From Clostridia bacterium (GTDB lineage Bacteria > Bacillota > Clostridia > TANB77 > CAG-465), in the NCBI GenBank assembly GCA_017521005.1, contig JAFXEC010000015.1, positions 1,241-65,240 on the forward strand: a DNA stretch of 64,000 bases, in the 5' to 3' direction. Shown here in pieces: positions 12,702 to 21,999 of this stretch. Made by a program: the position numbers and the translations under genes. Positions within the stretch are counted from its first letter, which is position 1. Each line of letters opens with the position of its first letter. Below the pieces are notes generated by a model. That model saw only the letters and a program-made list of their open reading frames with translations. It made no database searches and was not told the DNA's origin.

Positions 12702-14654
12702 ATGAAAGAGTTAGTAGAAAGTATTGAAAATTATATAAGAAAGCCATATACAGATTACGCTGTTATGATAAATGGTGAATGGGGTAGTGGTAAAACACAC
12801 TTTTGGAATAATAAGTTAAGACAAAGAATAGAAAATATAGCAAATGCTGAAGGAAAGAGATATAAAACTATATATATTTCATTATATGGTATTAATAGTA
12901 TTGAGGAAATAAGTAAAAAGATATTCTTAGAAACAAACCCAATGATATCTAAATCACTTAAAAAGTTTGTAGATGATTCAGACGGAAATGTAATACCAGA
13001 ATATGTTAAAACAGGTATAGACATAGCTAACCTTTATGGTGCTATGCACACAAATACTCAAATGGACTTTTCTAAGGCGTTTTCAACAGACGATAAGGTT
13101 TTATGTTTTGACGATCTTGAAAGAGCAAATATAGACATTATAGATATATTAGGATATATAAATAACTTTGTTGAACATGATGGAATTAAAACAATCCTTA
13201 TTTGTAATGAAAAAGAACTTGCCACTAAGTTTAAGAATAATAATATAGAAATGAAAACATTAATAGCAACTATGCTTCTAAAGGAAGAAGGAGCTATTAA
13301 CGATGAAGATAAATTAGAACCATTTGTAAACAAACTAGATTCTAAGATAAAAAGCATTTTTGATAGAACAAATGCCTATGAAAGAATTAAAGAAAAATTA
13401 ATAGGTGAATGTTTTGAATATATGCCAGAATATACATATATATTAAATGGTATGATAATGAAGTATGAATACGATTTATCTTTATCTAAATTCTTAAAAG
13501 AAGAAATTTCTACAATAATAGCTACATTTAATAAGACAAATACAAAGAACCTAAGAGTATTAAAACATGCATTAAATGATTTTGAAAGAATATTCTCGGC
13601 AGTAAAGGATGCATATCCAGAAACTCCAAGAGAAACTTTAAGAACATTATTAATGTTCACTATAGCAGTTTCTTTTGAAATAAAAGTTGGTAGTGAAGTA
13701 AAACAAATATTCTCGGATGTAGAGTCTAATGAAGAATATCAATCATACATTTATACATCAAGTTTGATGAATGATCAAAAAGGATATTATCTTCGTGAAT
13801 TCGATACAAGATATTTCTTAAATTCAAAAGAAGAATATAGATTCTTCAAGTTTGTAGAAGTATATGTAAGAAAAAGAATATTTGATGAAAAAGTATTTGG
13901 TGCTAATATGAAGGAAATGTTAAATCAAAAAGCAGATAAACGCTCTGATCCAAACTATATGAAGCTACTTACAGGTGCATATTGGAAACTATCCGATTTT
14001 GATTTTAGCATACTAAGAGAACAAGTATTATATGATATTAAAGAGGGGAACGTTCCATCTAAAGACTACGTTAAAGTATTTGCAGTATATAAATACCTAA
14101 ATGACATGCAAATAATAACAGTAGATATGAGTGATGTAAAATCTAAGTTTACTACAGGATATAAATTAGCGCTAACAAATGAAGCTAGATACAAAATAGA
14201 TTTAGATTCTGTAAATGTAGATGTAGATGCAGAAGATGCATTAGTACAAGAATTTGCTGAAGAATGTAGAAAAGCAAAGGATGTAATATATGATGAATGT
14301 ATTCGTGAAAAGGTAGGATATCTATTCAAGAATCTTGTAGATAACATAGACGAATTCTATAAGCAAATGATAGGACCATATTCAACAATACCTGTATTTG
14401 CAAAATATGAAATGTCTGTGCTTTATGATAGACTAAGAGATGTTAAGAATAATGACCTATACAATATAGTAAGTATTATGAGCACAAGATATGATGACAA
14501 AGAAGAGCTTCTAAAACAAGATAAAGCAAATCTTAAGAAATTAACTGAAATAATAGATGAGAAAGCAGATACATTTGGAAGCACTATTAAGAGAGCATTA
14601 ATTAAAAATTTAAGCGCGGAAATTAAAAAAGTATTAAAGAGATTAGAAGAATAA
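12702..14654 (+). CDS. KAP-family P-loop NTPase (soluble, no TM insert seen)
   Basis: Walker A INGEWGSGKTHFWN and Walker B-like VLCFDDLERA (the KAP DDLDR signature). It starts 13 nt after the recD2 stop, with a GGGGGG RBS and no intervening terminator. Confidence 0.65.
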   Translation: MKELVESIENYIRKPYTDYAVMINGEWGSGKTHFWNNKLRQRIENIANAEGKRYKTIYISLYGINSIEEISKKIFLETNPMISKSLKKFVDDSDGNVIPEYVKTGIDIANLYGAMHTNTQMDFSKAFSTDDKVLCFDDLERANIDIIDILGYINNFVEHDGIKTILICNEKELATKFKNNNIEMKTLIATMLLKEEGAINDEDKLEPFVNKLDSKIKSIFDRTNAYERIKEKLIGECFEYMPEYTYILNGMIMKYEYDLSLSKFLKEEISTIIATFNKTNTKNLRVLKHALNDFERIFSAVKDAYPETPRETLRTLLMFTIAVSFEIKVGSEVKQIFSDVESNEEYQSYIYTSSLMNDQKGYYLREFDTRYFLNSKEEYRFFKFVEVYVRKRIFDEKVFGANMKEMLNQKADKRSDPNYMKLLTGAYWKLSDFDFSILREQVLYDIKEGNVPSKDYVKVFAVYKYLNDMQIITVDMSDVKSKFTTGYKLALTNEARYKIDLDSVNVDVDAEDALVQEFAEECRKAKDVIYDECIREKVGYLFKNLVDNIDEFYKQMIGPYSTIPVFAKYEMSVLYDRLRDVKNNDLYNIVSIMSTRYDDKEELLKQDKANLKKLTEIIDEKADTFGSTIKRALIKNLSAEIKKVLKRLEE

Positions 14655-14710
14655 TAAGTTCAAAATAAGGAGGTGGGTAGAAATATTCACTTCTTTTGTT
14701 ATATATATAC

Positions 14711-14739
14711 TTGAATAAAAATAAGAAATGTAATAATAT
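14711..14739 (+). promoter_or_regulatory. Promoter of pilin-like paralog 1 (shared family architecture)
   Basis: TTGAAT, a 17-nt spacer, TAATAT, followed by ATTTGTGTAG. This is the same layout as at 16248 and 20906. Confidence 0.55.
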
Positions 14740-14766
14740 ATTTGTGTAGGGAAAAGAGGTAAACAA

Positions 14767-16194
14767 ATGAGAAATAAAAAAGGAATAAGTTTGATTGTTT
14801 TAGTAATAACAATTATAGTTATGGTAATACTAGCAGCAAGCGTAGTAATTACACTATCTAATACGGGAATAATAGATAGAGCTAATCATGCAGTGCAATT
14901 AACAGACGAAAAACAAGTGCAAGATTTAGCAGCTATGTTATGGGCTGAAACCTATCTAGATCCATCAAAAAAAGATGATATAGAGAATGTTGTAAAACAA
15001 GAATTGGCAGAACAAGGCATAACTGAAGATAAGTGGAATATAGAAATTTCAAACACTGGAATTACTATAACTGCCAAAGGAAATGAAACGGATGACAATC
15101 AAGGAAATGATTCGGAAGGTGATTCTGAAAGCAGTTCCGGAAGTGATTCAGGAAATAATATTGTAGTAAATGTTACTAGTTCTACATTAAGTGAGGATTA
15201 TTTCGAGTTAGAAAGTTATGATCCTGAAACAATAACTTTCACAATTACCACTCAGTTAGAAAAATCTGTAGAAAATGAAAAGGTTAAATTAAAATATAGT
15301 TTCTATGATTTGTCGTCATCAGGAGAATATACACATTTGTCAGATGAAGATGTTGAAATAGAAACTACGGATAAGACCATAGCTACTGAAAAAAGTTTAA
15401 TTGTACAAGAGGAACAAAATATAAGAGTATGTTTACAAGTATTAGATATGTCTAATAGAGAATTGGCAACATATAATATAGATACATATAAATTATCAAA
15501 TGGTGCGACATATAGCTTAAGCACATATGCAATTTGTGTACCTGCAGGAACACTAATTCTTGTAGAAGTAGAAGAAGAGGATGAAAACGGTAATAAGAAA
15601 AAGAGAAGAAAACAAAAGAAAATCGAAGATTTAACATATGATGATAATATAGTGGTATGGGATTTTGATAATGGATGTTTCTCAACAGCTAAGCCAATTT
15701 GGTTGAAGAAAACAGAATTTGCTGATGAATATAATGAATTAACATTTAGCAATGGTTCAGTTCTTAGAACTATAAGAGAGCACAGAATATTTAATAAAGA
15801 ATTAGGTAAGTTTACATATCCAATGGGAGAAGAAACAAATATTGGAACAACAACATTTACAGCAGATGGAGAAGAAGTTAAGCTTGTAAATAGAAGAGTA
15901 GTAGATGAAAAAATAGACTATTACAATGTTATAACAAATTATCATATAAATGCTTTCGCAGATGGTATATTAACATCATGTAGATTAAGTAATTTATATG
16001 ATATTAAAGATATGAAATATGTAAAAGATGATAGAGAGATAGTTGGAATAGATAAATTTAAAGATATTCCAGAGGAATATTATTATGGTTTAAGATTAGG
16101 CGAACAAAGAAGAGATGTTAATAACAAAGGAGACTTTAGTGATCTTAAATCTTGGACAGAATATGTAAATAGACTTATCAGTAAAAAGAAATAG
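14767..16194 (+). CDS. Pilin-like N-terminus protein with acidic Ser/Asp linker and C-terminal Hint (bacterial intein-like) domain
   Basis: The N-terminus is MRNKKG|ISLIVLVITIIVMVILAASVVITLSNTGIIDRA. The Hint blocks are CVPAGTLILV (Cys257 at 15535-15537), TIREHRIF and NVITNYHINAFADGILTSC (to 15981). A hairpin terminator lies at about 16209-16238. Confidence 0.7.
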   Translation: MRNKKGISLIVLVITIIVMVILAASVVITLSNTGIIDRANHAVQLTDEKQVQDLAAMLWAETYLDPSKKDDIENVVKQELAEQGITEDKWNIEISNTGITITAKGNETDDNQGNDSEGDSESSSGSDSGNNIVVNVTSSTLSEDYFELESYDPETITFTITTQLEKSVENEKVKLKYSFYDLSSSGEYTHLSDEDVEIETTDKTIATEKSLIVQEEQNIRVCLQVLDMSNRELATYNIDTYKLSNGATYSLSTYAICVPAGTLILVEVEEEDENGNKKKRRKQKKIEDLTYDDNIVVWDFDNGCFSTAKPIWLKKTEFADEYNELTFSNGSVLRTIREHRIFNKELGKFTYPMGEETNIGTTTFTADGEEVKLVNRRVVDEKIDYYNVITNYHINAFADGILTSCRLSNLYDIKDMKYVKDDREIVGIDKFKDIPEEYYYGLRLGEQRRDVNNKGDFSDLKSWTEYVNRLISKKK

Positions 16195-16247
16195 TATGAT
16201 ATAGAAGGGGTACATGTGTAAAATATGTACTTCTTTTTATATAACTA

Positions 16248-16276
16248 TTGAACAATGTTCAAATATATAATAATAT
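16248..16276 (+). promoter_or_regulatory. Promoter of pilin-like paralog 2
   Basis: TTGAAC, a 17-nt spacer, TAATAT, then AGTTGTATAT. Confidence 0.5.
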
Positions 16277-16302
16277 AGTTGTATATACAAAGAGGTAAAC
16301 AT

Positions 16303-17283
16303 ATGAAAAACAAGCAAGGAATAAGTTTAATAGTTTTAAGTATAACAATACTTGTAATGGCAATACTTGCAGCAACAGCAATAATTGCACTAGAAGATAG
16401 TGGAATAATAAAAAGAAGTAAAGATACTGTAACTGGTAATAATTATGCGGATGAAATGACCAGATTAATTGTAATAAAAAACGGAATACTTACAGATAAT
16501 TTGGGCGAAATAACAGTCGAAGAATATATTACAGAATTAACTAACAAAGGCCTAATAGAAACAGGAAGAACAAACAACGCAGATGGAAGTATAACGGTAA
16601 CCACAAAAACTGGCTTTGAAGTAATAATATCTCAAAACGGAACGAGTGATTTAACTTTAGAAATAGAAGGATACACACCTCCAACTGTTGCAAATGGCGG
16701 TAATAATAGTGGAAATGCTGGAAGCAATGGAGACGGCAATGTTGCAAATGGTCTTCCGGGAGAGGGCGAAAAAGTGCTAGACGGATTTAAAATAGCTATG
16801 GATGAGTATTTTTGGGGTGAGACAGTTCAAATAGAAGATTCGGATAAGTATAATGCGGCAAATCCAATGCAACCTATATATGACAGCATGCAAACTTTCG
16901 AGTATGATGCAAATATGACATGGAGGCAATGGGTGAATTCATCATATAACACATATGGATATAAAATATTGGTTGCTGATGGAGCATCGGGAGGATATTC
17001 AGGAGAATCTATAGTAACAAGTGATTCGAGGAGTACGCTAGGATGTCAAGTACAAATTTCTAGTTTAGTTATATATTATAATGATGCTGCTTGTACACAA
17101 TTAGCTACGGACGAGGAATATATAGTATATCACGGAAAGATATGTACCGCGCAAATTGGACTATTTGATTTAGACACAAAAATTGAAGATACTCTTAATT
17201 CAATGGTTGTAACTGTAACACCATTTTATAATATATATGAAAAAAGATTGCCTTTTTTTGTATTCGGATATTATGAGGATTAA
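16303..17283 (+). CDS. Pilin-like N-terminus protein, paralog 2 (Gly/Asn-rich linker, unknown C-terminal domain)
   Basis: MKNKQG|ISLIVLSITILVMAILAATAIIALEDSGIIKRS. ATG 16303 follows the RBS AGAGGT; the ORF-track start at 16279 is unlikely to be the true start. Confidence 0.65.
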   Translation: MKNKQGISLIVLSITILVMAILAATAIIALEDSGIIKRSKDTVTGNNYADEMTRLIVIKNGILTDNLGEITVEEYITELTNKGLIETGRTNNADGSITVTTKTGFEVIISQNGTSDLTLEIEGYTPPTVANGGNNSGNAGSNGDGNVANGLPGEGEKVLDGFKIAMDEYFWGETVQIEDSDKYNAANPMQPIYDSMQTFEYDANMTWRQWVNSSYNTYGYKILVADGASGGYSGESIVTSDSRSTLGCQVQISSLVIYYNDAACTQLATDEEYIVYHGKICTAQIGLFDLDTKIEDTLNSMVVTVTPFYNIYEKRLPFFVFGYYED

Positions 17284-17328
17284 TATATGTAAAATAAACA
17301 CTAGTTTTGTCAAATGGTGACATAATAT

Positions 17329-17357
17329 TTGCATTTTGTAATACATTGTGGTATAAT
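17329..17357 (+). promoter_or_regulatory. Extended -10 promoter of the 96-aa GC-rich ORF
   Basis: TTGCAT, a 17-nt spacer, TATAAT, with TGg immediately upstream of the -10. Confidence 0.5.
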
Positions 17358-17399
17358 ACATAAGTTGTTAAAATAAAATTTATAGAAAGGGGCCTAACT

Positions 17400-17690
17400 A
17401 TGACCACATGTGTTGCTAACCAGTTGGAAGCAAAAAGAGAAACAGTAGTGTTCCGCAATATGGTGGATGCACGCTTAGTAAAGTATGACGAAATTCATGA
17501 ATTGCAAGATGGTTACTTCAAAGTCTTAAAAAAAGGATCGTGGGGCGTAATCACGGAGAGTGGCGAAGAAGTATTTCCTTGTTCTGCATCTACAATTTAT
17601 TATGTAGAAAACGGCAGAGTTATTTGCGGCATGGATGATGACGTCTACTCAATTGAGCTTAAGAAAGCTAAAAAGGATTTGGAAGGATAA
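17400..17690 (+). CDS. Small protein with a single WG-type repeat (KKGSWGVITESGEEVFP); GC-rich patch
   Basis: An ORF with RBS AAAGGGG and its own promoter. A 12-bp hairpin terminator (17671-17702) overlaps the stop codon. Codon usage is unlike that of its neighbours. Confidence 0.45.
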   Translation: MTTCVANQLEAKRETVVFRNMVDARLVKYDEIHELQDGYFKVLKKGSWGVITESGEEVFPCSASTIYYVENGRVICGMDDDVYSIELKKAKKDLEG

Positions 17691-17709
17691 CCAAATCCTT
17701 TTCCTTTTT
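17671..17709 (+). terminator. Intrinsic terminator of the 96-aa ORF
   Basis: Stem aaaaggatttgg / ccaaatcctttt with an 8-nt loop that contains the stop codon, followed by a T-rich tail. Confidence 0.6.
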
Positions 17710-17776
17710 ATGTATATTTTTGTATTTATGAAAAATAATATATGTAATGTTATTTTAATATATATAAGGAGGAAAA

Positions 17777-18313
17777 ATGAAATCTACAGGAATGATAAGA
17801 AAGATAGATGACTTGGGTAGAATAGTAATACCTAAAGAAATACGTAAAACATTAAAGATAAGAGAAGGTGACTCGTTAGAAATATATATAGAAGGGGATA
17901 GAATACTGCTTAATAGATATGCACCTTTAGGTGATTTTATAGAGGATATAGTTGCACTAAGCGAAAGCGTTTCTAATAATACCGATTCTAATATTTGTAT
18001 TACAGATACTAAACAAGTAGTAATTGCTACTGGATATTTAGAAAAAGAATATTTATATAAAGATATAAGTAAAGAGTTATTAGAAAAAATGGATGAAAGA
18101 ATTTTATGGCAGAACAAAGGTGGAAATAAGATTAAAATTATAGAAAACGAAAATTTATCTAAAGATGTTAATCAAGTTATTATGCCAATAATATATGAAG
18201 GAAGTGTACTAGGAGCAGTTATACTTTTAACAAATGATGTAAATAAAAAAATAACTGAAACAGAATTAAAGTTAGTAAAAGTTATAGCAGATTACTTGGC
18301 AAGTAGAATGTAG
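17777..18313 (+). CDS. spoVT: Stage V sporulation protein T (AbrB-type N-domain plus GAF-like C-domain)
   Basis: The sequence TGMIRKIDDLGRIVIPKEIRKTLKIREGDSLEIY is the SpoVT/AbrB swapped-hairpin signature. The length of 178 aa is typical. Confidence 0.9.
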   Translation: MKSTGMIRKIDDLGRIVIPKEIRKTLKIREGDSLEIYIEGDRILLNRYAPLGDFIEDIVALSESVSNNTDSNICITDTKQVVIATGYLEKEYLYKDISKELLEKMDERILWQNKGGNKIKIIENENLSKDVNQVIMPIIYEGSVLGAVILLTNDVNKKITETELKLVKVIADYLASRM

Positions 18314-18388
18314 TATTAACAAAGAAAAACATAAGTAAAAAGAAGTGAAAACGATATATAGTTTTCACTTCTTTTTTGTTAGTATATA

Positions 18389-20767
18389 TTATAAATTACC
18401 AGCTTTTTCAGCATATTTTTTAAGTTTATTATATACATGGTAAGATATTGTATTCTTTTCGAAGCCTTCGCCTTCAACATATGTTCCATATTTAACACCT
18501 GTAAGTATTTCTATACCTTCATCTATTGTAGAGATAGGATAGATGTGGAACATTCCTTTTTCAACAGCATCAATTATTTCTGCATTTAACATTAAGTTCT
18601 TAACGTTGTGATGAGGAATAATAACACCTTGAGTTCCTGTAAGCCCTTGCATTTTACAAACTTCATAGAAACCTTCAATCTTTTCTGTAACACCACCAAT
18701 AGGTTGTATTTCACCTTTTTGGTTAACTGATCCAGTAACTGCTAGACCTTGTCTAATTGGTACACCAGATAGTGAAGAAAGGATTGCGTATAGCTCTGTA
18801 GAAGAAGCACTGTCTCCGTCAACTCCATTGTATAATTGTTCAAAACATATACTTGCATTAAAGCATAGTGGGAAGTCTTGAGCAAACTTTTCACCAATAT
18901 ATGCTGAAAGGATAAATACACCTTTAGAGTGAGAGTTACCACTCATTGAAACTTCACGTTCTATGTTTACTATACCACTCTTGCCAAGGTAAGTATTAGC
19001 TGTTATTCTAACAGGTTTACCAAATGGGTAACCACCAGAATTTAGAATAGTAAGACCATTAATTTGTCCAACAGCTTCACCTGAAGTAGAGATTATAGTA
19101 GCACCGTCATAAATCATACGTTTAAGTGTATCATCAAGTTTTCCGTATCTCTTTCTTTTATTTAATGTAGCAGTTATAACATCTTGTGGTTCAACTGCTT
19201 TTCTTTCAGCAAGTTTAGCAACGTGTGCAGATTCTATTATTATATCTGTTAAATCTGTTTGCATTGCAGTAAGTTTTGTTTTATCTCCAGCACATCTAGA
19301 ACTGTATTCTATAATTGCTTTAACAGCTTCGCTCTTAAATGGAAGTAAGCTTTCTTTTTTAACAACATAAGCAACATATTCAATAGTTCTTCTTATAGTA
19401 TCTGTATTTTTATCTATAGAATCATCAAAGTCTGCTTTCATCTTAAATAGTATTTTGAAATCTGAATCAACAGTACATAGTTGTTGATATATTTGTTCAG
19501 TACCAAATAATACTATTTGAGTTTTAATTGGAATAGCTTTTGGTTTAAGAGCAATCATGTGAGATGGAGTAGCCATATCACGAGACATATCTATACTTAA
19601 TTCTTCATTTCTAATTACTCTTTTGAAAGCTTCCCAAACAGACATGTTAGTCATAATATCACGAGCGTTAACTAAAAGATAACCACCATTTGCTTTATAG
19701 AAAGCACCAGCTTTAAGAAGAGTGTGATCAGTTCTTGTAGAACCCATAACGCTTTCATATTCTAATTTGCCAAATATATCTGTATATGTTGGGTTAGAAC
19801 ACATAACAACTGGAGCGTGAGTTAACATTTCGTTGTTTACTATTACATTAACTTTATATTTATGCCATGGTTTTGTTTGATGTCTCATAGCAGGTGGCAT
19901 AGTATCTTCTTTTGGATCTTCCTTAAATTGTTCAGCATGTTTAACTATATCTTCTTGTACAGCATATAGGTAATTTTGTATTTTTAGATTGCCTTTGTAT
20001 TTAATCTTAAGATCGTTAATATTTTTAGAAACGATGTAAGAGATCATATTAGACTGCCATGCATTAACCTTTTCATAACATTCTTTTTCAAGGGCATCTA
20101 GTTGTTTCATTATACCCATAGTTTCTTGTTGTATTTTAGGAGATTTAGTTTTGTATTTTTGTTTTGTTTCTTCATCTAATTTGTTAAATTCTTCTTCGTT
20201 TAATACTTTACCTTCGTGAATAGGAGAGAAGTATATACCGTCAGTTGCTGTTTTAATCTTAAATCCTTGAGCTGTTGTATATTCATCGAATTTTTTAAGA
20301 ATAGCATTTTTCTTTTCTTGATATTTTTGCATTAAAAGTTTTTTCTCTTTTTCATAGTTTTCAGATTTGAAAACCTTACCAAGATTTTCGCGTATAGCAA
20401 CCATAAAGCGGTGCATATCTTCTTTAAGTTCACGTCCGGCACCAGGTGCTAAGAATATTGCTATTGGTTCATTTGGATTTTCGAAATTGTGTACGTAACA
20501 AAGATCATCTGGAACGGGTTTTGTTTTAGCTAGTTTGTTTACAACAGATAAAACATATGGCATTTTTCCCATACCAACTTGTCCACAAACAAATAGATTG
20601 AACCCTTTTTGAGGCATTTGTAAAGCGGTTTCAACTGTTTCAAGAGCTCTTGTTTGACCAATAATTCCGTTATATGCAGAAATATCATCTGTTGTCTTGA
20701 AGTTAAATTGAGAACCGTTTAGTTTAGAAACTAAATCTGTAGATTTTAATTCTTTAAATTTTCTCAT
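18389..20767 (-). CDS. Lon-family (LonB/LonC-like) protease with N-terminal AAA-like domain
   Basis: A 792-aa protein with a C-terminal S16 protease domain (GDSASSTELYAILSSLSGVPIRQGLAVTGSVNQKGEIQPIGGVTEKIEGF). The Walker A-like motif is GQVGMGKM, with Met in place of Ser/Thr. Confidence 0.75.
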   Translation of the reverse strand: MRKFKELKSTDLVSKLNGSQFNFKTTDDISAYNGIIGQTRALETVETALQMPQKGFNLFVCGQVGMGKMPYVLSVVNKLAKTKPVPDDLCYVHNFENPNEPIAIFLAPGAGRELKEDMHRFMVAIRENLGKVFKSENYEKEKKLLMQKYQEKKNAILKKFDEYTTAQGFKIKTATDGIYFSPIHEGKVLNEEEFNKLDEETKQKYKTKSPKIQQETMGIMKQLDALEKECYEKVNAWQSNMISYIVSKNINDLKIKYKGNLKIQNYLYAVQEDIVKHAEQFKEDPKEDTMPPAMRHQTKPWHKYKVNVIVNNEMLTHAPVVMCSNPTYTDIFGKLEYESVMGSTRTDHTLLKAGAFYKANGGYLLVNARDIMTNMSVWEAFKRVIRNEELSIDMSRDMATPSHMIALKPKAIPIKTQIVLFGTEQIYQQLCTVDSDFKILFKMKADFDDSIDKNTDTIRRTIEYVAYVVKKESLLPFKSEAVKAIIEYSSRCAGDKTKLTAMQTDLTDIIIESAHVAKLAERKAVEPQDVITATLNKRKRYGKLDDTLKRMIYDGATIISTSGEAVGQINGLTILNSGGYPFGKPVRITANTYLGKSGIVNIEREVSMSGNSHSKGVFILSAYIGEKFAQDFPLCFNASICFEQLYNGVDGDSASSTELYAILSSLSGVPIRQGLAVTGSVNQKGEIQPIGGVTEKIEGFYEVCKMQGLTGTQGVIIPHHNVKNLMLNAEIIDAVEKGMFHIYPISTIDEGIEILTGVKYGTYVEGEGFEKNTISYHVYNKLKKYAEKAGNL

Positions 20768-20905
20768 ATGTACTCCTTAAATATTTTGCTTCATTTGTAA
20801 CTACGTTCATATATATACCTAAACTATATAACAAACAATAAAAAATAGCAACTGTTTTAAGAAATAAAAGTATAGAAAAAAGAATAAAAATATATACAAA
20901 AATTA

Positions 20906-20973: not shown

Positions 20974-21999
20974 ATGCAAAAGAAACAAGGTATATCCTTA
21001 ATAGTTTTAGTCATTACAATAATAGTAATGATAATCTTAGCAGCATCTGTAGTAATTACACTAAGTAATACTGGTGTAATAGATAGAGCAAGTCAAGCAG
21101 TAGATTTAACAAATGAGTCTCAAGTACAAGATTTAGCTGCATTAACATGGGCAGATGCCTATATGGACAATCTAAGAGGTCAAAACCTAATAGATGAAGT
21201 AACAACAAAATTAGCAGAACAAGGAGTAACAACAGATGACTGGAATATAACAGTAACAGATACAGGAGTAAGTGTTACAAATAAAAACTCTGCATCAGGT
21301 ACTGGTTTAGGTTCGCTAATAACAGCAGATAATTATGGAGACACAGTAGATTATACTGTAACAGTAAATGGAACTACATATGATGATTGGCAAATATATT
21401 ATCATAATAGCGACTATGTATATCTAATAGCAGCAGAATCAATAGGAGGTACAACATTAGACAATGGAACAACAGTAGCAAGCCTAACGACAGATGAATT
21501 AGCGTTATACGAAAAATTCAGAGTAGGAGATGCAGATAAGTATACATTAGTAGATACAGTAAGTGGAAATACAGCATATAATTCGAAAGCAGTAGCACAA
21601 TTAATAAAAGACTATGCAAACTTTGCAAATACAGAGGCATATGGAACAAATGTAGTTGGAGCAATAGGAGGACCTACAATAGAATTACTAGCAGCAGGAT
21701 GGAATGCAACAGGAAAAACACCAACAATGGCACTAACAACAGACACATATGGCTATAAAATAAACAATGCCACTTATGTATCAATAACAAGTGATGGATT
21801 ATATGTACCGTCAAATTACTATTACTGGTTGGCGTCTCCGTCTGCTAACTACTATGACATTGTTTTGGATGTGGGCTCTGGCCGTGTGGGCAGCGGCTCC
21901 TATGACGGTTCTGGCGACGTTCGTCCCGTAGTTTGTCTAAAATCTAGTATCCCTGCCACAGTGGGAACAGGAGATTATGATTTTAGTTTAACAAAATAA
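20974..21999 (+). CDS. Pilin-like N-terminus protein, paralog 3, with C-terminal WLASP...VRPVVCL module
   Basis: MQKKQG|ISLIVLVITIIVMIILAASVVITLSNTGVIDRA. ATG 20974 is better spaced from the GGAGG than 20965. The last roughly 170 nt are GC-rich and adenine-poor. Confidence 0.65.
   Translation: MQKKQGISLIVLVITIIVMIILAASVVITLSNTGVIDRASQAVDLTNESQVQDLAALTWADAYMDNLRGQNLIDEVTTKLAEQGVTTDDWNITVTDTGVSVTNKNSASGTGLGSLITADNYGDTVDYTVTVNGTTYDDWQIYYHNSDYVYLIAAESIGGTTLDNGTTVASLTTDELALYEKFRVGDADKYTLVDTVSGNTAYNSKAVAQLIKDYANFANTEAYGTNVVGAIGGPTIELLAAGWNATGKTPTMALTTDTYGYKINNATYVSITSDGLYVPSNYYYWLASPSANYYDIVLDVGSGRVGSGSYDGSGDVRPVVCLKSSIPATVGTGDYDFSLTK

Follow-up and report, generated by a model that had tools for sequence, protein, structure and literature searches.

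In our study, we examined a stretch of 64,000 nucleotides (the window) from contig JAFXEC010000015.1 of the Clostridia bacterium assembly GCA_017521005.1, and a gene on its forward strand was found to encode a pilin-like protein with a Hint (hedgehog/intein-type) module at its C-terminus. The open reading frame (ORF), 14767..16194, encodes 475 amino acids. According to the structure model, residues 257–475 are a Hint domain together with a conserved extension of 70 residues, which form one C-terminal module. A sequence-only reading had placed a bacterial intein-like (BIL) Hint domain here, and each of the motifs that it quoted was located in the 475-residue ORF at the residues it had given; judged from the number of family matches and the sharp start of the conserved block at the Cys, this is far beyond chance. 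The gene contained the following features.

14753–14759, forward: ribosome-binding site (RBS) AAAGAGG, 7 nt 5' of the ATG, read directly.
14767..16194, forward: whole gene for a pilin-like surface protein with a C-terminal Hint module (ORF list, sequence).
14767..15081, forward: pilin-like head, residues 1–105 (full-length model; 56% identity to the head of the paralog at 20974).
15082..15156, forward: acidic/Ser-rich low-complexity linker, residues 106–130 (predicted local distance difference test score, pLDDT, below 50; indel against the relative P0001).
15166..15498, forward: beta-sandwich passenger domain, residues 134–244 (eight strands in the model).
15532..15537, forward: predicted scissile junction Ile256/Cys257 (the conserved module starts at the Cys; putative cleavage site).
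15535..15981, forward: Hint-fold domain, residues 257–405 (profile against PDB, model, Foldseek, hhalign).
15535–15564, forward: N-terminal nucleophile block CVPAGTLILV, residues 257–266 (the Cys257 codon begins at nucleotide 15535).
15565..15621, forward: charged Glu-rich/Lys-rich stretch EVEEEDENGNKKKRRKQKK, residues 267–285 (lengthened first beta-hairpin; purine-rich tract).
Residues 286–299, forward: IEDLTYDDNIVVWD (string located in the ORF).
15769..15783, forward: block B, Thr335...His339, within TIREHRIF (residues 335–342) (conservation; alignment to BIL2 and to Hedgehog His72).
15919..15981, forward: C-terminal Hint blocks YYNVITNYHINAFADGILTSC, residues 385–405 (conservation; aligned to BIL2 and Hedgehog).
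15982..16191, forward: conserved 70-residue extension, residues 406–475, RLSNLYxIKDMKYVKD ... GLRLxEQ (conservation, model).
16199..16243, forward: intrinsic-terminator-like hairpin and U run, directly 3' of the stop codon (folding against shuffles).

The terminator-like hairpin had a folding energy of -17.8 kcal/mol (z -5.9), which was equalled by none of the 200 shuffles. With an RBS, a terminator of its own and all of the invariant residues present, the gene has the look of an intact, expressed transcription unit of its own. In the full-length model (pLDDT 74), a helix at residues 9–64, a second helix at 69–82 and strands at 90–95 and 98–103 were followed by the linker, the beta-sandwich and the Hint module. 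The linker was disordered in this model and differed by 12 residues in length from that of the sister strain, and the beta-sandwich was kept only among the close Clostridia relatives. The protein P0001 of a Clostridia metagenome-assembled genome (MAG) was 97% identical to the query.

The Hint fold was confirmed by structure modelling and not by Pfam. A family profile was built from 44 modules with unrelated N-termini, and against the PDB sequences it matched Tetrahymena BIL2 (6y75/6tmm) at E 0.002 over positions 2–135, up to the ...FANGILT strand, and an intein at E 0.077. The AlphaFold2 model of the module from the same alignment had a pLDDT of 94.1 and a predicted template modelling score (pTM) of 0.89, and when it was compared with PDB by Foldseek the best 50 matches were all Hint domains. 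These were BIL2 (E 3.5e-8), the C. thermocellum BIL (2lwy; TMt 0.82, where TMt is the TM-score normalised by target length), the Mtu RecA intein (E 5.0e-6), the DnaB, DnaE and gp41-1 inteins (E 1.5e-5 to 3e-4) and Hedgehog-C (1at0; TMt 0.76), among others. The alignment by hhalign to a profile of 16 Hedgehog-C sequences extended over the whole length, from Cys1 to the final Cys, with E 2.6e-4 and a probability of 43%; against one Drosophila Hedgehog-C sequence the signal of hhalign and hmmsearch was too weak for use. The Hint domain of the sequence-only reading is borne out by the profile, the model and the Foldseek matches.

The single sequence gave a different picture. Neither the whole protein nor residues 257–475 had a Hint-related match in Pfam or NCBIfam at E ≤ 1, phmmer against the PDB sequences gave noise only, and there was no match for the query in PHROGs. 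When the 44 members were scanned singly against Pfam, only sub-threshold matches were obtained, of which the Hint clan was the commonest (best E 3.4e-4; Hom_end_hint 15, Intein_splicing 13, Hint 11, Hint_2 6 and PT-HINT 3), and AXH contributed 16 weak matches. The query probably lacks Hint-clan matches because of the Glu/Lys-rich insertion in its first hairpin. A lack of significant Hint hits in profile searches had been named beforehand as a ground for giving up the idea; the Pfam check was empty on the query though the fold is that of Hint, and that rule would wrongly reject a true Hint domain. The module family was covered by none of the Pfam, NCBIfam and PHROG models searched. PF26182 and PF26918, the annotations listed for a few relatives, were rejected as the module, being found in only 2 and 4 of the 120 module-bearing matches listed, respectively.

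The charged stretch at residues 267–285 lengthens the first beta-hairpin (strands 7–15 and 21–29 of the module model). It was specific to a Clostridia sub-lineage, and most relatives contained a short ADGTSK turn. The Glu/Lys-rich hairpin is coded by an almost pure purine tract at 15565–15621 (gaagtagaagaagaggatgaaaacggtaataagaaaaagagaagaaaacaaaagaaa), and its length differed between relatives, which would fit an expansion by slippage.

Conservation was counted over 101 non-redundant modules, which were drawn from 154 loci of bacteria and viruses and reached down to relatives with 26–32% identity. Cys257 was Cys in all 101 modules, and the block-B His339 was His in all of them. The block-B His was aligned with the His of BIL2 and with Hedgehog His72. 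In the C-terminal blocks, Asn395 of the H-x-N motif was conserved in 99 modules and His393 in 88, followed by Leu402, Thr403 and Ser404 in 93, 91 and 84 modules, respectively. The domain ends with Leu-Thr-Ser-Cys and contains no terminal Asn, Gln or Asp, and the residue at the -1 position was Ile in the query and variable across the family. The N-terminal Cys, the block-B His and the absence of a terminal His-Asn agree with the class of cleaving, non-splicing Hint domains, in which the sequence-only reading had placed it.

The YYNVITNYHINAFADGILTSC segment was aligned with NNHNFFANGVLA of BIL2 and with sVaASC of Hedgehog. An ungapped extension of the BIL2 alignment places Cys405 at the terminal-Asn position, whereas the Hedgehog profile-profile alignment ends gILTSC on sVaASC and sets Cys405 opposite Hedgehog Cys143. 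As the two alignments disagree, it is ambiguous in which register Thr-Ser-Cys should be read against the intein His-Asn-(+1); should the register be shifted, the residue after Cys405 is Arg. Only 38 of the 101 modules contained Cys at this position. Over all 143 modules before de-duplication, it was occupied by Cys (53), Asn (15), Leu (13), Thr (13), Arg (8), Met (5), Ser (5) and others. Judged from this substitution pattern, Cys405 cannot be essential to the family, whichever register holds, and the functional +1 nucleophile that had been seen in it was not supported. Hedgehog Cys143 was recently shown to carry a branched thioester (PMC12054796); a like catalytic role of Cys405 was downgraded because the position is non-conserved. 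The viral loci L099–L103, L105, L108, L114 and L121, which encode tail-fibre-like proteins, contained Asn at the Cys405 position (GILTSN followed by RFNN). As the terminal Asn of inteins occupies this position, these viral members might still cut the C-terminal extension.

The extension was modelled together with the Hint part at high confidence, as two short strands and three helices. Its mean column identity was 48%, with invariant Asn, Tyr and Ile in SNLYxI and invariant Gly, Arg and Glu in GLRLxEQ; Asn409 and Tyr411, early in the extension, were about 85% conserved. The profile of the extension gave no match to PDB sequences and had no similarity to the sterol-recognition region (SRR) of Hedgehog, and the tail was rejected as a known domain on these two results. 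As modelled, the extension is conserved and co-folded with the Hint domain in a single C-terminal module of 205–220 amino acids, and is not a cargo or toxin. The releasable toxin or cargo that the sequence-only reading suspected in the 70-residue tail is contradicted by this.

The module was present in a very large family. The last 205–222 residues were kept at 50–68% identity across hundreds of proteins whose N-terminal parts were unrelated. Among 8,000 candidates scored, 813 database proteins matched at E ≤ 1e-3, and an exhaustive HMMER profile search of 1.84 billion representatives gave 3,604 clusters (50% identity) at E ≤ 1e-3 and 807 at E ≤ 1e-30. The conserved block started exactly at the Cys in 229 of the 241 representatives examined, and the module ended 30 residues or fewer from the C-terminus in 234. 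Pilin-type N-termini were found in at least 68 of these representatives. At least 51 contained Clostridia-type pilin-like anchors without Glu+5, and 17 contained canonical Glu+5 prepilin signals of several styles. Canonical Phe-Thr-Leu-x-Glu motifs after the Gly were carried by family members other than the query, and one member passed the N_methyl threshold. The link to a pilin-type N-terminus, first noticed in the query, is real and recurrent. Other members contained Sec or twin-arginine (TAT) signals, and further N-termini were tail-fibre- or baseplate-like with PHROG tail matches. No paper was found in which a Hint domain is combined with a pilin or a tail fibre, in line with the earlier remark that the combination is undescribed, and no experimental or descriptive literature was found on the module family.

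In the GTDB species representatives, the module was present at 78 loci, nearly all of which were labelled metagenome-assembled or uncultured. The hosts were Clostridia, gut 'Alphaproteobacteria', Gastranaerophilaceae, Tenericutes, Erysipelotrichaceae, Burkholderiales and Neisseriaceae. IMG/VR contained 76 loci, including giant-virus MAGs and contigs of more than 300 kb. The tblastn search of a tail-fibre-borne family module against 50,697 GenBank phage records gave no match; the viral members are known only from metagenomes. The best BFVD match was the Gaeavirus protein A0A3G5A239, with 43% identity and, across the full module with its extension included, a query-normalised TM-score of 0.84. 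Its UniProt name is 'Hedgehog/Intein (Hint) domain-containing protein', so that in at least one member the Hint part has already been recognised by automatic annotation. The module was carried by this protein and by giant-virus MAGs (IMG/VR loci L090, L091 and L125), and it therefore crosses the bacterial, phage and eukaryotic-virus gene pools.

Some members differed in their arrangement. P0201 ended in a tandem pair of modules, each complete with Hint domain and extension. In P0215 and P0230, the module was present in the middle of the protein and was followed by a HAD_SAK_2 domain, and P0215 contained an N-terminal glycosyltransferase-25 domain as well. The loci L060–L078 formed a deep-branching subfamily (26–32% identity) in which the module was found at the end of very large proteins of about 970–2,190 aa, for example L075:64-6636 with 2,190 aa. 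The MAGs of this subfamily were labelled Faecousia, Oscillospiraceae, Christensenellaceae, Eubacteriales and Clostridia. Its motifs were CVTxDTLV, HxFFD and HYN, and the extension was shortened or divergent.

From the fold, the boundaries, the conservation pattern and the modular distribution described above, we infer a cleavage chemistry, a topology and a purpose. Residues 257–475 are probably one autoprocessing module, which would free a 256-aa passenger through an N-to-S acyl shift followed by cleavage. On export of the protein, the pilin-like N-terminal helix would stay behind in the membrane, or a pilus-type system might take charge of the protein. On the extracellular side, Cys257 would attack the carbonyl of Ile256 in the N-to-S acyl shift with the assistance of His339, the thioester would be resolved by water or by another nucleophile, and the 256-residue passenger (pilin-like head, linker and beta-sandwich) would be parted from the 25-kDa module. 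The query is not expected to undergo C-terminal cleavage or splicing because it contains no terminal Asn. The chemistry has precedents in Hedgehog, the BIL domains and the inteins (PMC12054796, PMC7664689, PMC7765530). By analogy, the most economical idea for the purpose is a removable folding or assembly cap, as at phage fibre tips, which is favoured because the module caps tail-fibre-like proteins.

Several points weigh against autoprocessing of this kind in the query, beginning with the empty Pfam and NCBIfam searches. In block B, Thr335 was Thr in only 47 of the 101 modules, and the spacing T-x-x-x-H is one residue longer than the canonical TxxH; the block-F Asp was replaced by Asn. The Ile at the -1 position is a slow residue for the acyl shift in inteins. 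The residue at +5 of the query was Val and not Glu, the export topology is that of a prediction only, and no Walker A motif of T2SE type (GPTGSGKT-like, the signature of pilus-assembly ATPases) turned up in any reading frame of the window. The cleavage itself is inferred from homology. On the whole, the first interpretation stood as regards the Hint domain, its cleaving and non-splicing type and the pilin combination, of which no description was found, and its cargo tail and +1 Cys were abandoned.

A transfer of the passenger to an adduct, or its self-anchoring, as in Hedgehog, is possible but unlikely. The extension would bind the nucleophile that resolves the thioester (a lipid, a sugar, a cell-wall amine or a Lys of another subunit), perhaps with a relay via Cys405, and the passenger would end covalently modified or attached and not simply cut. 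A Hint domain with a C-terminal region of roughly 70 residues and variable secreted passengers parallels Hedgehog-C (PMC2362128, PMC12054796), and hhalign sets Cys405 on Cys143, the residue that forms the branched intermediate in Hedgehog. The first part of the extension was as conserved as the catalytic core and was co-folded with the Hint domain, and BIL2, the best structural match, stems from a proposed conjugation system. However, Cys405 was present in the minority of relatives counted above, the position of the Hedgehog general base Asp46 was aligned with a hydrophobic residue (Leu/Ile), the -1 residue was not Gly, and the extension was without similarity to the sterol-recognition region. 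The hosts were Gram-positive and Gram-negative bacteria, phages and giant viruses, with no obvious common acceptor. A full prokaryotic and viral counterpart of Hedgehog, in which the thioester would be handed to an acceptor chosen by the extension for protein-autonomous, sortase-free lipidation, glycosylation, cross-linking or wall anchoring of pilin-like proteins and virus fibre tips, is quite doubtful, and is weakened by the non-conserved Cys405, the missing equivalent of Asp46 and the very broad host range.

It is improbable that the Hint fold is catalytically dead and stays attached as a structural, binding or oligomerisation domain. The query did not match any curated Hint model, its block-B spacing is non-canonical and its block-F Asp is changed to Asn, and the conserved extension could be a binding surface. 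Nevertheless, the boundary Cys and the block-B His were invariant over about 26–100% identity, including viruses and several phyla, which is hard to explain without catalysis and so weighs against a dead domain.

The pre-toxin Hint of a polymorphic toxin, whose 70-residue tail would be released as an effector and neutralised by the product of a nearby gene, is hardly credible. Hint domains precede the C-terminal toxins in polymorphic toxin systems (PMC3482391), and 3 of the 44 members had weak PT-HINT matches (best E 0.0025). However, the tail was conserved and not polymorphic, was folded onto the Hint domain in the model, and had no terminal Asn for being cut off. The direction of variability was the reverse of that implied by the likeness to polymorphic toxins drawn in the sequence-only reading, as the N-terminus varied and the C-terminal module was constant. 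No neighbour was immunity-like. The next gene downstream (ATG at 16303, stop at 17283) encodes a 326-aa pilin-like paralog which was missing from the sister strains, and no neighbour family recurred across the loci as an immunity partner. The toxin/immunity reading was rejected on the tail conservation and the gene neighbourhood. A true intein or a splicing BIL domain, by which passenger and tail would be joined, is just as hard to credit, as the Hint fold, the Cys at position 1 and the Cys after Thr-Ser in the query are set against the lack of a terminal Asn, Gln or Asp, a putative +1 Cys that is not conserved, 'exteins' which form no conserved host protein (the N-side being unrelated between members and the C-side always present with the Hint domain) and the absence of a homing endonuclease.

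The head of the protein contained a basic leader, MRNKKG, ending in Gly, followed by the hydrophobic helix ISLIVLVITIIVMVILAASVVITL, a second helix and a beta-hairpin. The query gave no match to N_methyl (PF07963), and only TadF was matched, at E 0.0029, which is below the cutoff. The window contained four pilin-like paralogs, all on the forward strand, at 14767, 16303, 20974 and 57076, and only the one at 14767 carried the module. The four shared a GISLIVL-type N-terminus without Glu+5 and similar heads, and had unrelated C-terminal domains. The head of the query was 56% identical to that of the Hint-less paralog at 20974, and the head of the second paralog was 77% identical to that of the module-bearing P0009; the same pilin-like heads therefore exist with and without the module. 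In the nematode hedgehog-related gene families, the same passengers are likewise found with and without the module (PMC1636047).

The GC content of the window was about 30%, and the neighbours were housekeeping and sporulation genes (spoIIIAE/AF, cysS, femAB, recD2, a KAP NTPase, spoVT and lonC). The KAP-family P-loop NTPase (650 aa; 12702–14654) immediately preceded the Hint gene, and a WG-repeat ORF of 96 aa (17400–17690) was present downstream; both were kept in the sister strains. The second pilin-like gene with its promoter region (16238–17286) was an insertion of about 1.05 kb which was missing from the sister-strain contigs L156–L158, where the Hint gene was directly followed by the WG-repeat ORF. 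The segment 15139–16237, with the beta-sandwich, the Hint module and the terminator, was 99.2% identical to sister strain L156, and the flanks (12712–15117 and 17287–20853) were about 91% identical to it. These sequence identities suggest a recent exchange of the beta-sandwich/Hint/terminator cassette between strains.

All-against-all clustering of 1,808 ORFs from the 154 loci gave no recurring neighbour gene as a partner, which fits what is expected for a self-acting domain. The sole recurrence was secA, which was found directly downstream of the module gene, on the same strand, in 11 of the 78 bacterial loci (L005, L006, L008, L011, L012, L013, L014, L018, L027, L038 and L045). In these loci, the module gene was present in two tandem copies in L012 and in three in L011. 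The secA adjacency could stem from synteny within a lineage or point to a connection with Sec export.

Inteins, the maturation of Hedgehog and several tools of protein engineering all depend on the chemistry that Hint domains provide. The chemistry is familiar, and the family is very large, unmodelled and present on biologically interesting proteins. It is a distinct branch of Hint domains with a C-terminal signature of its own and a fused extension without detectable relatives, and it is placed on surface proteins, which were pilin-like in uncultured gut Clostridia and other gut lineages and tail-fibre-like in uncultured phages and giant viruses. If simple self-cleavage is true, it would be a new maturation step for adhesin- and fibre-like proteins and would offer a compact tag that is C-terminal by nature and removes itself. 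Transfer of the thioester to an acceptor, if it takes place, would make the module a new route of covalent surface attachment, a bacterial or viral parallel to Hedgehog lipidation. The protein also marks a limit of curated-profile searches, as a lineage-specific hairpin insertion strips all Pfam signal from it.

The module was compared with the named systems. The Hedgehog/Hog proteins (PF01079) share with it a C-terminal Hint domain of about 140–150 residues followed by an extension of about 70 residues, the Cys at position 1 and the block-B His. They also share the ending hydrophobic-(Ala/Thr)-Ser-Cys, with Cys405 of the query aligned to Hedgehog Cys143 (motif J, ...ASCYA), and many unrelated secreted passengers which also exist without the module, as in the nematode hedgehog-related genes (PMC1636047, PMC2362128). 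In contrast, the query had no PF01079 match (11 of the 44 relatives were sub-threshold, best E 0.0092), and the module contained no Gly at -1 and no equivalent of Asp46 (Leu/Ile there). The Cys143 equivalent was absent from most of the relatives, the extension, of comparable length and conserved, had no SRR sequence similarity, and the hosts were bacteria and viruses.

The BIL type A domain of C. thermocellum (2lwy) and the Tetrahymena BUBL BIL2 (6y75/6tmm) were the best sequence and structure matches. BIL domains are present in variable regions of non-conserved secreted proteins and are expected to cleave and not to splice (PMC7765530, PMC7664689), which is shared with the module. However, BIL-A has a conserved His-Asn end (PMC7765530) and cuts its own C-terminus, whereas the module contained Leu-Thr-Ser-x and then the conserved extension; the identity of BIL domains to the module was only 13–15%, and they are embedded in the protein whereas the module is terminal. 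The B-type BIL or Hint_2 (PF13403) domains likewise lack the intein C-terminal motif and are expected to cleave at the N-terminus (PMC7765530). The query had no match to Hint_2, 6 of the 44 members were sub-threshold (best E 0.038), and P0230 scored 22.4 bits with the cutoff at 28.4; it is by the Pfam model only that this class is set apart.

PT-HINT (PF07591) is also a Hint autopeptidase, found close to the C-terminal end of large surface or fibre-like proteins, some of which contain tail-fibre repeats (PMC3482391), but it is followed by a variable toxin and an immunity gene, whereas the module contained a constant 70-residue extension and no immunity gene. The module differs from the class 1 inteins in having no terminal Asn, no conserved +1 residue and no conserved host-protein flanks. 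Type IV pilins and pseudopilins are alike in the short basic leader ending in Gly, the hydrophobic helix of about 20–25 residues and the small alpha/beta head; the query is unlike them in the Val at +5, the lack of an N_methyl (PF07963) match and the lack of a T2SE-type Walker A in the window. The Peptidase_S74 intramolecular chaperone domains of phage tail spikes and fibres are C-terminal and autocleaving, with a Ser-Lys dyad. They are an analogy as a C-terminal self-removing cap, many members of the module family having tail-fibre N-termini, but the fold and chemistry are unrelated (Ser-Lys dyad against the Hint Cys) and no sequence or structure match was seen.

The module fails the defining features of the intein, BIL-A, Hint_2, PT-HINT, PF01079, Hog and polymorphic toxin families, and it was therefore filed as a distinct branch of the Hint superfamily. 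By analogy, while being a member of no Hog, BIL-A or intein family, it most likely works like a Hog or a cleaving BIL domain.

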